A DNA stretch of 64,000 nt from Psilocybe cubensis (lineage: Eukaryota): assembly GCA_017499595.2 (NCBI GenBank), contig CM039010.1:620001-684000 (forward strand). The letters run 5' to 3'. How positions within the stretch are numbered: position 1 is the first letter of the stretch; every line of letters begins with the position of its first letter. The notes beneath the pieces are model-generated. The model was not told where the DNA came from. It worked only from the letters and a program-made list of their open reading frames with translations, and did not search any database. The position numbers and the translations under genes were made by a program. Below are positions 25,480 through 42,484 of this stretch, piece after piece.

Positions 25480-26149
25480 GGGTTACCGGCAGGGTTATAA
25501 TGCAGTCATAACGCACCTGACATATGTGCTAAACTCAAACCTGACATCAAGGCGAAGTAAGTACCCCGCATTGATCTAATATCGAGCGTTGCTACTGGGA
25601 AGTGATCCCTGGTTAGATTATTTCTGTTACCGCGGATGCCTGTCCCGCAGAATGACCAAAAACTATGAAAATATTCATTTTAGTATGAGCAAGTTACATC
25701 TACAAGTCTTAAAATTGTGTGCAGTAAGAAATACAGGATGGCACAGTGTAATGAATACCTCTATTGACGCTAATAAAACTACGTCTGAAAAGAGTGTCTC
25801 TGAGCATCGAATGCCATGTACAAACATCCTGGTGCCGTGAGATTTGCCAAGCAGAATTGTTGCGCTTCTGAGGTTGAACGTTGACTGTTTGCAGTGTACA
25901 AGTGGTGCGGCATGCTCAAGACCCTGAAGACGGCGGCACAGGCCTTCGGTTTGGTAATTTCCACAACAATATGGCTCACGGCACCCCGCTGTCTATCATC
26001 ACCAGGCCTGCCATTACATTTTGGGATATGACGATAAGGTGCAGGGACGCTTGCCAAGATATGTTTTATTATCAAGTAAGCGCCTCAGGTCTTTTTATGG
26101 GGGTTTGCACATTTATGTGCCTCAAGAGCATGGGTATGTCTCATGGCAC

Positions 26150-27050
26150 CCCTCTATGAACACTGGCGGATCAGCACACTCAGCAGTGGAGGCTCGGGGC
26201 ACACTGGCGGCTCAGGGCATCGGTTCAAATATTTCTACAAGTCTACGCCCCACAGCACCACTTTGAACCGGCACGGCTCATGGAATTTCAATAAAAATTA
26301 ACAAATATTAATTTTACACCTGTAAAGATAATGTGTAGGTAAACTTTCTATCACTACAAAAAATGTAATTGTGTTTTCATATGGATATTCCTGGCAGAAC
26401 CGCTTCATGGCACCCTCCTTCTACTCTAAACTCTAGAGGCTAGGGGCATCAGTTCTGTTACTTCCTCATGGTCGTGCCTCAAGGCATCCCTCCTTTCACC
26501 ACTGGCGGCTCAGGGCACCGGCGGCTCAACACATTTGTTTGTGTATTCCATATAGCCTCAGGGCACCCCTCTTTTCACCACTGGCGGCTCAAAGCATCGG
26601 TTCAAGTATGTCTACAAGTCTAAGCCCCATGGCACCACTTCGAACCGACATGCCTTCATGGCTCACTAGCGCCCAAATAAATGCGTCAAATATTATATTG
26701 GAACCGATGCCCTGAGCCGCCAGTGCTAAAGGAGGAGTTCCTTGAGGCATGACCATGGGTGCATCGGTTCATGTATGTCTACAAGTCTAAGCCCCACGGC
26801 ACCACTTTGAACCGGCATGCCTCACGGCTCACTAGCGCCCAAATAAATGTGTCAAATATTATATTGGAACCGATGCCCTGATCCGCCAGTGCTAAAAGGA
26901 GGAGTTCCTTGAGGCATGACCATGGGTGCATCGGTTCATGTATGTCTACAAGTCTAAACCCCACGGCACCACTTTGAACCGGCATGCCTCACGGCTCACT
27001 AGCGCCCAAATTAATGTGTTACCCCGCTCCGGACCACTGGTGGCCTAGGG
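26150..27050. repeat. Left subterminal repeat region of the transposon
   Basis: ~167-bp tandem units (GCATCGGTTCATGTATGTCTACAAGTCTAAGCCCCACGGCACCACTTTGAACCGGCATGCCTCACGGCTCACTAGCG...) plus scattered CACTGGCGGCTCAGGGCA motifs in both orientations. Confidence 0.85.
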
Positions 27051-27313
27051 CATTGGTATACAATTGTTACATGGATGTCTGGTGGCATGCGGCATGCCAT
27101 GCATAAGGCTGCAAATGAGACGTCTGAGTGCACCAGTATCCAGTTTGAGGAAATGGGGTAGGCACGCTTGCCAAGCTATCCTGCTCTCTACTAAGTGAGA
27201 TACAAGTTTCTAGGCATTCCCATAACCTTTGGCTCACGTCAGTGGCAAAGGTATTCCGTTTTTAAGCCCCTACAAATATTTCTCTCATATCATCTATTCT
27301 CCCGTGTTTTCTC

Positions 27314-27866
27314 ATGCCATTATTTCATCGTAAAGCCACAGTGTCTTACAGACCAGTAAACTCCGGAAAACGCAGACGCAAAAACAAGGATCGACTTATA
27401 AAAAAGCTTCTTAATCTTCGAGATGTGGTTCAAGAACTCGCTGATGCACAAGACTCTTTGAAAAAGTATATTAAGCAGAGGCATGGAATTATCAACGACA
27501 CATACAATCTATCCCTTGTTTGTCTTAGATCCACACAGTGTTTCTATCTGAGATCATTTGTACGTTACATTCTCTGCCTCATACTTAATATTTGACTCAT
27601 ATCGTACATCATAGCCTCAATTTCAAACGATATTTACTCGCATAGCTCCGTATAAACTACAATTAAAGCGGACAAAGGCAATGGAAAACCTTGCAGAGAG
27701 GCTAAGGGCAAAGCTTGTCGTAAGAATATGCTTAATGCTTCATTTTGATGATAAATGACATTGATCAACTTAGCATGCACACAAGGCATTATGGCTATAC
27801 GATCAAGGAGTACAGAGTATTGACGAGTATCTGCAGCTTCCATCCGGATTCAAACCTGTGTATTAG
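27314..27866 (+). CDS. Small basic cargo protein of unknown function, 3 exons
   Basis: MPLFHRK...GKRRRKNKDRLIKKLL (NLS-like); GT-AG introns near 27560-27613 and 27720-27773 keep the frame open to TAG at 27866. Confidence 0.55.
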
Positions 27867-27929
27867 CTGAAATAACTGGTTTACTTGTTTATTTGGCTAT
27901 GGGATATACTATCTAAGCTACCTAGTAGT

Positions 27930-41600: not shown

Positions 41601-41704
41601 AAGCTGTTAGCTACATGACACAGGAAAGGGCGGTGATGTATATGCGAGTTTTCTTCTCTATATGGAACAGGCAACAGATTCAGAAGATGGAAGGTAGACA
41701 GTGA
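38651..41704 (+). CDS. KDZ (Kyakuja-Dileera-Zisupton) transposase with SWIM zinc finger(s) and CxC4-like cysteine cluster, about 6 exons
   Basis: SWIM-type CICPRNHNKTECFH and WRC...SCAH; QKCISCSHRYVGPDCSNLGIFNFNN...ETPF; catalytic-region motifs IWDGVT, TGGIMCVWCTH, VYDFAC, IDIFHSSEHKC, NSSAAECGN; no premature stop noticed. Confidence 0.85.
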
Positions 41705-41799
41705 TAGTCAATATAGAAATCTATTATATTTTTGTATGGCTCACATTTGGATGAGTACAGAAAACCAAGCTTATATTAGGCATTGACTAAATCCTAAGC

Positions 41800-42345
41800 A
41801 CTGACTCGGACTCATGGCATGATACTTGCCTTCTGCTGATGTACCATTTTCTGCCATTTGACGCTGTGAGGCACCAAAAGGTGCGTAAATGTCACGGCAT
41901 GCCATGAGCTGTACCCTTTGCTGCCATTAGACGCCGTGAGGCACCAAAAGGTGCGTAAATGTCAAGGCATGCCATGAGCCGCCCCTTCAAGGATTCCTGG
42001 TGCACCAGACTAAACACAGGCATGCGCTGAGTCCTCACACACGACATTTTCTGCTATTCAATGCCCTGAGGCACCACAAAATGTAGAAATGCTAATGAGC
42101 GGCCATTTCAAGGATCCAGCGCATCAGACTGAGCACGGCTCACGTTTTCTGTCATTCAACGCCGTGAGGCACCAAAGGGTGCATAAATGTCACAGCATGG
42201 CATGAGCCGCCCCTTCAAGGAGTCCTGGTGCACCATACTACGCACAGTTCTTACAGGCATGCGCTGAGCCTTTATGCACAAGATTTGCTGGTATTTGATG
42301 CCCTAAAGCACCAGAAGCAGACTGAGGATGGTTCCCATAGGCATG
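41800..42345. repeat. Right subterminal repeat region of the transposon
   Basis: GCCGTGAGGCACCAAAAGGTGCGTAAATGTCACGGCATGCCATGAGC and related units repeated several times. Confidence 0.85.
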
Positions 42346-42484
42346 CTCAATATAAATTATCAAAATGATATATCTAAATACGGAAGGGCGCACATGTAAG
42401 GTGCGTACTTGGCTGGCATGTCGGGTTCATACTACAGAGGCATGTAGGGCACAATATACAGTAATTGTATACGGACGATTTGCG

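Follow-up and report, generated by a model that had tools for sequence, protein, structure and literature searches.

A recently mobile 17-kb DNA transposon, probably of Zisupton type, splits a HET-domain gene in Psilocybe cubensis

The fish element Zisupton, said to be the founding member of its superfamily, reportedly generates 8-bp target duplications and has terminal inverted repeats, an animal host and a single transposase gene. Among fungi, KDZx1 of Cryptococcus deneoformans combines KDZ, CxC4 and SWIM in what is described as the "canonical Zisupton architecture"; it is 6.4 kb long, contains one extra ORF of unknown function (CNA07680), and its mobility has been demonstrated (Huang et al. 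2024, PMC11343200). KDZ1, KDZ2 and KDZ3 of Cryptococcus neoformans measure 9.2-10.9 kb, and mobility was shown experimentally for them too (Huang 2024; 10.1101/2025.05.19.654958). KDZ transposons are reported to be abundant in mushrooms (Muszewska 2017, PMC5751038), and the account of Kojima 2025 (PMC12730594) includes Agaricomycetes KDZ elements with extra genes, namely Kyakuja-1_LB, Kyakuja-2_LB and the TET+ Zisupton of Agaricus/Auriculariales. Few mushroom KDZ transposons are defined end to end, and the experimental evidence of mobility comes so far from Cryptococcus.

Here we analyse an element of 17,005 bp that occupies positions 25480-42484 of a 64,000-nt stretch of Psilocybe cubensis DNA (the window), in plus orientation as set by its transposase gene. 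As far as KDZx1 is described (PMC11343200), the two elements share 8-bp target duplications, the lack of detectable terminal inverted repeats and the presence of additional genes, whereas the single extra ORF and 6.4-kb length of KDZx1 contrast with the 17.0 kb of the P. cubensis element, its large repeat arrays and its three or more extra genes. Further, the KDZ domain of KDZx1 is recognised by InterPro, but that of the P. cubensis element is not recognised by Pfam. With KDZ1-3 our element has in common the large size, the mostly 8-bp duplications and the extra ORFs without known domains; unlike it, KDZ1-3 are assigned to the Dileera clade, contain CxC1 instead of CxC4 and end in terminal inverted repeats of 139-241 bp. 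Kyakuja elements also lack terminal inverted repeats, but their duplications are given as 7 bp and their termini as CA..TG, in contrast to 8 bp and GG..CG here (PMC12730594). The families of Kojima carry a TET/JBP dioxygenase, whereas none was detected in the P. cubensis element. Because terminal inverted repeats are not universal in the superfamily, their lack is compatible with KDZ membership. With a probability of roughly 0.85, we interpret the element as an autonomous, recently active Zisupton-type DNA transposon of the KDZ superfamily in P. cubensis.

Limits of the element can be read directly from the sequence. One copy of TTGCATCG lies on its left (25472-25479) and another on its right side (42485-42492). 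As this word occurs seven times in the window where 2.7 occurrences are expected, the duplication on its own carries little weight, and it is the context that makes the case decisive. Removal of 25480-42492 (17,013 bp, a multiple of three) leaves the minus-strand ORF 42374-43441 reading on into 25076-25528 as a single open frame. The host gene interrupted in this way encodes a HET domain. Its upstream part (42493-43441, minus strand) matches positions 1-41 of the Pfam HET profile (E 0.0016) and the downstream part (25076-25479, minus strand) takes the alignment up again at position 39 (E 4.2e-16), the break coinciding with the junction. The downstream part also contains a coding tandem repeat with a 12-nt unit (25318-25416). 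A repeat search found no segments of the element elsewhere in the 64,000-nt window. We conclude that the element is a genuine DNA transposon of 17 kb that has been mobile recently and has split a HET-domain gene.

Other copies and insertion sites were judged from four public sequencing runs (X1, X6, X9 and X11). Three of them contain the empty site as an exact skip of 17,013 bp, with a single TTGCATCG copy retained at the joint; the support consists of one 8,873-bp contig in X6, one 72,937-bp contig in X9 and 22 raw reads with 15 starts in X11. For X1 the skip is not listed, and an 8,362-bp contig spans the right junction with 0 differences; since X1 may be the sample behind the window, it does not count as independent support. 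Loose ends start exactly at 25480 and 42484 both in X6 (two contigs per side) and in X11 (32 and 44 reads), and X1 has one loose end, at 25479. Both termini join different flanks in other runs. One such flank in X6 has GACAAAAC both where it breaks off and where it resumes, a further 8-bp duplication according to a consensus of two contigs per side with agreement of 0.73 and 0.67. Although its HET site is empty, X6 contains segments without a single difference from the window copy over 660-726 bp, and copies in other runs vary by internal joints at 26.2-27.1 kb, in the 5´ subterminal zone. The element is mobile, as read from the insertion polymorphism, the shared termini and the 8-bp duplications. 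An earlier note on this DNA, made from the letters alone, had described a recent, full-length element with TTGCATCG at both ends, base-exact limits and a HET gene restored in frame by excision. All of this is borne out, by the sequence, the empty-site joint and the exact loose ends as regards the limits and by frame joining and the split HET match as regards the host gene. Of what the same note had proposed to look for, the empty HET alleles are present as well, and the X6 consensus gives one further site with a different 8-bp duplication.

Both states coexist in the population and their polarity is inferred, not seen directly. One might then take the filled state as ancestral and the empty alleles as products of secondary precise deletion between the 8-bp repeats. 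We find this barely credible: the HET reading frame runs uninterrupted through the empty allele, the same termini adjoin unrelated flanks in other strains, and the element is wholly absent from X9, where depth over it is zero except for a 147-bp piece.

The transposase gene (38651-41704, plus strand) encodes about 920 aa in approximate exons 38651-39100, 39163-39330, 39391-39699, 39756-40709, 40767-41057 and 41105-41704. Its product is collinear end to end, across five introns, with the P. cubensis proteins P0001 and P0002 (~920 aa), several paralogous transposases being encoded by this species. Such full-length homology agrees with the previous description of the transposase as apparently intact. 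Pfam CxC4 (PF18717) matches at window positions 39666-40715 with E 3.9e-46 and 156.5 bits (cut-off 26.9), and it also matches all 42 of 42 transposase homologues. A SWIM-type CxCx8CxH motif is located in the exon 39163-39330 and is nearly invariant among the 42 homologues (C164, C166, C175 and H177), as are W492, D493 and G494; two of the homologues bear the UniRef name SWIM-type. The Pfam SWIM profile has no match at E<=1 on the motif-bearing exon, and Pfam KDZ (PF18758) none even at E<=10 on the last transposase exon of the window (41105-41701). Sub-threshold KDZ matches exist in 16 of the 42 homologues (best E 1.6e-4), the gathering score being reached by none; the one in P0031 spans profile positions 73-172 and lies in the C-terminal region of that protein. 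From the SWIM+CxC+KDZ make-up first assigned to the protein, CxC4 and the SWIM motif stand, the latter without its Pfam match, and the KDZ profile fails on the protein's own last exon.

Evidence for the catalytic part comes from conservation and from modelling. D493 is kept in 41 of 41, D817 in 30 of 31 and E876 in 29 of 29 sequences (P0002 numbering), and the window transposase retains all three, which we regard as candidate catalytic residues. In a model of the paralogue P0002 (pLDDT 78; 41-89% identical to the window by exon), on which the fold evidence rests, an RNase-H-like core is split by a helical insert. A structure search with this model matched the ISCth4 transposase with Z 8.2 (rmsd 3.9, 208 aligned), where Z of about 8 is middling by the tool's own note, and further the foamy-virus integrase (7.6), Tn5 (6.7), Mu (6.4) and Hermes (5.8). 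All matches cover residues ~482-919, and most top rows are DDE transposases or integrases. Foldseek against PDB returned nothing at E<=0.001 for the same model. These data support a transposase composed of SWIM-type, CxC4 and DDE parts, i.e. the Zisupton architecture in the sense in which Huang et al. 2024 use the term. As a separate observation, weak Pur-alpha rows (E 0.015) appeared in Foldseek on the N-terminal repeats of the transposase.

The element starts with GGGTT and ends with TTGCG. Neither a repeat search nor word-7 blastn found terminal inverted repeats: the best inverted match of the terminal 600 nt has 19 nt at 84% (E 0.44), and the 25 longest inverted repeats include no terminal pair. 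Both ends contain subterminal repeat zones. Four minus-strand copies of the 11-nt word GCCGTGAGGCA, with at most one mismatch, are situated in the 5´ zone (25972-27019, minus strand) at 25972, 26475, 26818 and 26985, together with a 167-bp tandem repeat (26594-27019). In the 3´ zone (41840-42313, plus strand) four plus-strand copies at 41863, 41933, 42063 and 42161 lie inside 70-bp repeats. The two zones, in opposite orientation, thereby contain eight of the ten GCCGTGAGGCA matches of the window, for the whole of which 0.69 are expected. In the interior, a 99-bp tandem duplication (34390-34593, two copies with 98% matches) came out of the tandem repeat search, and two inverted arrays of a 63-bp GC-rich unit (37107-38398) sit between gene C and the start of the transposase, the first at 37107-37516 (6.5 copies) and the second at 37882-38398 (8.2 copies), with 407-nt arms that are 90% complementary. 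The several repeat arrays reported before are thus confirmed, with units of 167, 99, 63 and 70 bp. Scans for tRNA and Rfam families found none in the element, and its ends have no nucleotide similarity to 70 related metagenome loci.

We suggest that the ~920-aa transposase makes 8-bp staggered cuts in the target, which would result in duplication of TTGCATCG, and that the element would move as one 17-kb unit, probably by cut-and-paste. As terminal inverted repeats are missing, recognition of the ends probably proceeds through the inverted subterminal GCCGTGAGGCA arrays. The moving unit consists of a lineage-wide core of three genes (A, C and transposase), an orphan gene B and the repeat arrays.

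Gene A (27933-30940, minus strand), predicted by tblastn of P0208 and P0059, has approximate exons 30940-30659, 30602-30246, 30192-29578, 29524-28652 and 28598-27933. Its putative product of about 830 aa is disordered at the N-terminus and contains a coiled coil and a basic K/R stretch, together with a conserved C-terminal Cys/His domain of 220 aa. Relatives fall into 308 representative clusters (50% identity) at E<=0.001. In annotated genomes, where adjacency was read from consecutive locus tags and accession numbers, A-like genes are 5-8 gene numbers away from CxC4 transposases (JR316_0007398/7406, JR316_0006704/6699 and, in Galerina, KDR72068/72062). Among the metagenome loci, 7 of the 8 whose upstream flank exceeds 8 kb contain the A domain, as do 11 of the 17 with over 5 kb, the other 6 having no detectable gene A; loci L005 and L010 have other gene arrangements.

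Gene C (35462-36684, minus strand) is a predicted multi-exon gene, identified by tblastn and conserved upstream of the transposase. It begins with a CxxC...CxH knuckle (36517-36684), followed by a conserved glycine-rich motif, and its last exon (35462-35821) encodes a conserved module and a coiled coil. Searches with tblastn gave matches in 30/70 and 24/70 metagenome loci, and of the 28 loci with a flank longer than 2 kb, 27 have gene C upstream of the transposase and in divergent orientation. The MADS-like reading of gene C, a likeness by eye, found no support: Pfam has no match at E<=10, SRF-TF included, on its intron-less relative L010:7090-7542, and a profile of 25 gene C sequences against PDB sequences gave coiled-coil noise only.

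The predicted two-exon gene B (32868-33820, minus strand) encodes 264 aa, with a basic stretch and then an acidic region, and is 100% identical to P0043 and 88% to P0044. No Pfam match was obtained for it, and no relatives were found outside P. cubensis or in the 70 metagenome loci; gene B appears to be a species-specific orphan. We find three non-transposase genes supported (A, B and C) where the earlier note had counted at least five spliced ones. Among 39 ORF pieces taken from the element, CxC4 is the sole Pfam family to reach significance, so labels such as MADS-like, RNA:DNA-hybrid-binding or TET/JBP are unsupported, the first two having been given to the cargo before. GalKase and LPD30 matches fall on the 63-bp arrays and were dismissed as repeat-driven noise; other sub-threshold matches on extra ORFs, which belong to coiled-coil families, were set aside as noise too. 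Pfam Tet_JBP matches none of the ORF pieces, in agreement with the initial failure to recognise TET/JBP; the PE type of Kojima escapes sequence profiles, and the one cargo domain for which a folded model was obtained, that of gene A, is mostly helical.

With its 17 kb and several non-transposase genes, the element might be viewed as a Starship-like giant that mobilises host-derived adaptive cargo, and its proposal as a basidiomycete counterpart of such giants has a parallel in Huang et al. 2024 (PMC11343200), who raise this comparison too, for the additional ORFs found in KDZ elements of Cryptococcus. We consider this very improbable and largely refuted. Firstly, the features of Starships, a tyrosine-recombinase captain gene at one end and host-derived cargo, are absent here: neither a tyrosine recombinase nor anything else apart from CxC4 is matched by Pfam in the ORF pieces scanned. 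Secondly, genes A and C accompany the transposase in different species and in metagenomes and therefore belong to the element, and gene B has no relatives beyond P. cubensis. Moreover, Starship recombinases are stated to be generally lacking in Basidiomycota (Gluck-Thaler and Vogan 2024, PMC11162782). Judged by gene order in Galerina, in soil metagenome contigs and at further loci of P. cubensis, the predicted genes A and C are partners of the transposase lineage with conserved synteny, and not captured host genes. Most likely they would serve functions of the element itself, e.g. as DNA-binding, end-recognition or regulatory cofactors.

Another possibility is that the element is composite and partly non-autonomous. 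A smaller Zisupton core (gene C and transposase, perhaps with gene A) would have taken up DNA of other origin through nested insertion or duplication, namely gene B, orphan ORFs and the 63-bp, 99-bp and 167-bp arrays, and the present copy may be moved in trans by the paralogous transposases of P. cubensis. Related loci are indeed more compact: in them 2.8-8.0 kb separate the end of the A domain from the transposase downstream, against ~10 kb here, the last exon of gene C is a median of 1.4 kb upstream against 2.8 kb here, and gene B and the 31-35 kb part of the element have no counterpart in the 70 loci. The internal joints that differ among copies also fit. On the other hand, the empty site misses all 17,013 bp as one piece, both termini are common to other copies, the 39 ORF pieces contain no further transposon protein domain, and the transposase gene is intact and has kept every conserved residue. 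We therefore hold a composite origin to be unlikely and keep to the autonomous Zisupton-type transposon.

In plants, En/Spm-CACTA (TnpA/TnpD) and PIF/Harbinger (with its Myb-like partner) encode a second DNA-binding protein besides the transposase. Multi-gene transposons of plants use subterminal repeat arrays as binding sites; these elements possess terminal inverted repeats, and their transposases come from unrelated families. They may offer a comparable working scheme for proteins A and C and the GCCGTGAGGCA arrays. A tentative extension, which we would rate somewhat below even odds, is a three-component transposon, in which A and C are obligatory partners that read the asymmetric, TIR-less ends via GCCGTGAGGCA or control the divergent promoter of gene C and the transposase, and in which the Cys/His domain of protein A may represent a fold unseen among solved structures. 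An AF2 model of this domain is mostly helical with pLDDT 93.2. Foldseek against PDB gave nothing at E<=0.001 for it, and hmmsearch of the profiles A1, A2 and A3 against PDB sequences gave nothing below E 0.0068, the best rows being coiled coils. The domain is thus predicted to fold confidently, with a model that matches no solved fold, and, being widespread, it makes a reasonable target for structure determination.

In the literature, companion genes of Zisupton/KDZ elements surfaced only as the "extra ORFs" remarked on by Huang 2024, and the supplementary data of Kojima may contain a like family. The putative three-gene core has no earlier description that we found. The element provides a base-precise, population-polymorphic Zisupton-type case in Agaricales, with filled and empty alleles in public strains. 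Most of its "cargo" is a conserved gene set, and the vague extra ORFs thereby turn into a question open to experiment, namely whether A and C give a TIR-less DDE transposon its end recognition. For annotation, these gene families in mushroom genomes should be treated as transposon genes, not host genes. The gene B locus is itself modelled in more than one way, and one annotation model, P0209, puts the first exon in the 99-bp duplication.

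The 17,005-bp element (25480-42484), a Zisupton-type KDZ transposon sitting in a minus-strand HET-domain gene, lies between two copies of the 8-bp duplication TTGCATCG (25472-25479 and 42485-42492). Taken alone the repeat is weak proof, for chance predicts 2.7 copies of this octamer in the window and 7 are present. When the element and one duplication copy are excised, the 17,013 bp lost are divisible by 3, and ORF 42374-43441 becomes continuous with ORF 25076-25528, both on the minus strand, in a single open frame. The upstream piece ends in a match to Pfam HET profile positions 1-41, and the downstream piece begins with the profile again, from position 39 onward (E 4.2e-16). 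Because the HET profile is broken at the junction and the frame is restored, the insertion lies inside the HET domain and its limits are exact, as the earlier note had claimed.

Nine public sequencing runs from three studies contain part of the region, and four of them (X1, X6, X9 and X11) were compared with the window over 24200-43700. Firstly, X6 (8,873-bp contig), X9 (72,937-bp contig) and 22 raw reads of X11 with 15 different starts contain a joint that skips 17,013 bp precisely; in X9 the depth is zero across the whole element save a 147-bp piece (37566-37712). Such a skip is not among the joints listed for X1. Here the right junction is spanned, with 0 differences, by an 8,362-bp contig; the window may itself derive from X1. 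Secondly, matches to the element break off precisely at 25480 and 42484, and the sequence continues into other flanks, in X6 (two contigs per side) and in X11 (32 and 44 reads, respectively), and one X1 contig ends at 25479. In X6, the consensus of the flanks (two contigs per side) has a second 8-bp duplication, GACAAAAC, where it breaks off and where it resumes, and segments identical to the window copy are present in X6 although its HET site is empty. Given these empty sites and the same termini in other flanks, the element is a low-copy, insertion-polymorphic unit which moved recently.

The host flank is itself variable. A 12-nt coding tandem repeat of the HET gene (25318-25416, 8.2 copies) differs among strains: in X6 and X9, the contigs with the empty site are shorter there by 84 nt (seven units). 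An X1 flank contig lacks 12 nt at 25060 and 13 nt at 25117. A 36-nt stretch (24630-24665) is common to another locus; contigs or reads of X1, X9 and X11 match it alone, with unrelated sequence on both sides.

The transposase ORFs (38651-41704) are colinear with the database proteins P0001 (917 aa) and P0002 (922 aa) across five short introns, and no reading-frame defect was seen in this comparison. According to Huang et al. 2024 (PMC11343200), Zisupton architecture comprises SWIM, CxC4 and KDZ. Of the SWIM, CxC and KDZ parts previously ascribed to this protein, Pfam recovers CxC4 (E 3.9e-46); a CxCx8CxH SWIM-type motif and, separately, a W-D-G strand are nearly invariant among 42 homologues. 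The KDZ part is not recovered by Pfam in the window's own last exon even at E<=10; the profile matches 16 of the 42 homologues below threshold (best E 1.6e-4). Foldseek found nothing for the AlphaFold model of the paralogue P0002 (pLDDT 78). An exhaustive structural aligner matched its residues ~482-919 to ISCth4 transposase (Z 8.2), foamy-virus integrase (Z 7.6), Tn5 (Z 6.7), Mu (Z 6.4), Hermes (Z 5.8) and piggyBac (Z 5.7). By way of the paralogue's model, these matches indicate an RNase-H-like core in the transposase, whose first strand (with D493) would be set apart from the remainder by a predicted helical insert of ~190 residues. D493, D817, D842 and E876 are conserved among homologues and all kept in the window's protein. 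The P0002 model also contains, at residues ~120-280 (window exons 39163-39699), two four-strand-plus-helix repeats, each ending in a Cys/His motif; Foldseek gives weak rows to Pur-alpha repeats for them (E 0.015, probability 0.33-0.41).

Gene A (27933-30940, minus strand) was modelled on the 830-aa paralogue P0208, and its main exon is 99.7% identical to JR316_0012937. Its C-terminal 220 residues recur in 308 representative clusters among 1.84 billion proteins (E<=0.001); 16 of 20 representatives looked up by name are from Agaricales and 4 are Logan or metagenome records. This domain (27933-28598) has no Pfam match and bears conserved C58, H61, C104 and C106. Its model is confident (pLDDT 93.2, pTM 0.88), and only one of 48,161 solved chains reaches Z 2 (Z 2.9), where Z 7-8 is usual even for models that lack a match; Foldseek gives E 1.2 at best. 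Relatives of gene B (32868-33820, minus strand, 264 aa) were found only in P. cubensis: the ORF is 100% identical to a UniRef protein of this species, JR316_0012939 belongs to its cluster, and the annotated genes JR316_0008619 and JR316_0008621 are a second B and A copy (88-89% identity).

Gene C (35462-36684, minus strand) was recognised via 70 metagenome loci encoding transposase relatives, of which 30 match its last exon and 24 its first. It is upstream and divergent in 27 of 28 loci with >2 kb of upstream flank; in the 28th, L010 (6101-7542), it follows the transposase downstream in the same orientation, and its MADS-like region lacks an intron. The gene A domain is found in 7 of 8 loci with >8 kb of upstream flank and in 11 of 17 with >5 kb, on the strand opposite to the transposase in 10 of these 11. 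Locus L005 (2762-3463) carries it on the same strand, and L045 and L060, from two different metagenome records, agree fully in scores and spacing. Annotated genomes place A-like genes at a distance of 5-8 gene numbers (consecutive numbering, not coordinates) from CxC4 transposases; there are two such cases in P. cubensis and one in Galerina. Since A and C co-occur with the transposase across loci, the three genes form a conserved core, whereas this element alone has B and the stretch at ~31-35 kb. None of 39 ORF pieces has a significant Pfam family except CxC4, and the labels proposed earlier (MADS-like, hybrid-binding, cargo) found no backing. A TET/JBP of the divergent PE type described by Kojima, beyond sequence detection, may be present.

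Terminal inverted repeats were sought in the element and none found. The 11-nt motif GCCGTGAGGCA (up to 1 mismatch) occurs in four minus-strand copies at 25972-26995 and four plus-strand copies at 41863-42171; thus 8 of its 10 window matches, against 0.69 expected, are in two subterminal zones, embedded in 167-bp and 70-bp repeats. Copies in other runs differ at 26190-27100 by internal joints, among them an opposite-strand joint, a backward step of 412 nt and skips of 141, 573 and 863 nt; the 5´ subterminal repeat zone is thus structurally unstable.

The element would best be read as a cut-and-paste transposon of the DDE kind that cleaves its target with an 8-bp stagger, its asymmetric ends presumably marked by subterminal arrays, and with two element-encoded putative partners (A and C) alongside the transposase. 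Among known elements, KDZx1 of C. deneoformans (Huang et al. 2024, PMC11343200) comes closest; it likewise has 8-bp duplications, the same domain set and no inverted repeats, but measures 6.4 kb with one unknown ORF. KDZ1-3 differ by CxC1 and long inverted repeats, and Kyakuja by 7-bp duplications; Starships use a tyrosine recombinase. Literature searches found no description of such partner genes. Because key earlier papers and supplements lie outside the literature coverage, we only provisionally regard the element's size, the conserved three-gene core and the unmatched predicted fold of protein A as new.

Two arrays of a 63-bp GC-rich unit in inverted orientation (37107-38530; 407-nt arms, 90% complementary) widen the divergent intergenic region between C and the transposase to ~2 kb; in related loci it is much shorter. 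If transcribed, they could form a long hairpin. The 147-bp piece between them (37566-37712) also occurs, with 11 differences, in a 28.5-kb X9 contig and is flanked by loose ends in X1, X9 and X11; this piece could be host sequence that was captured or is shared.
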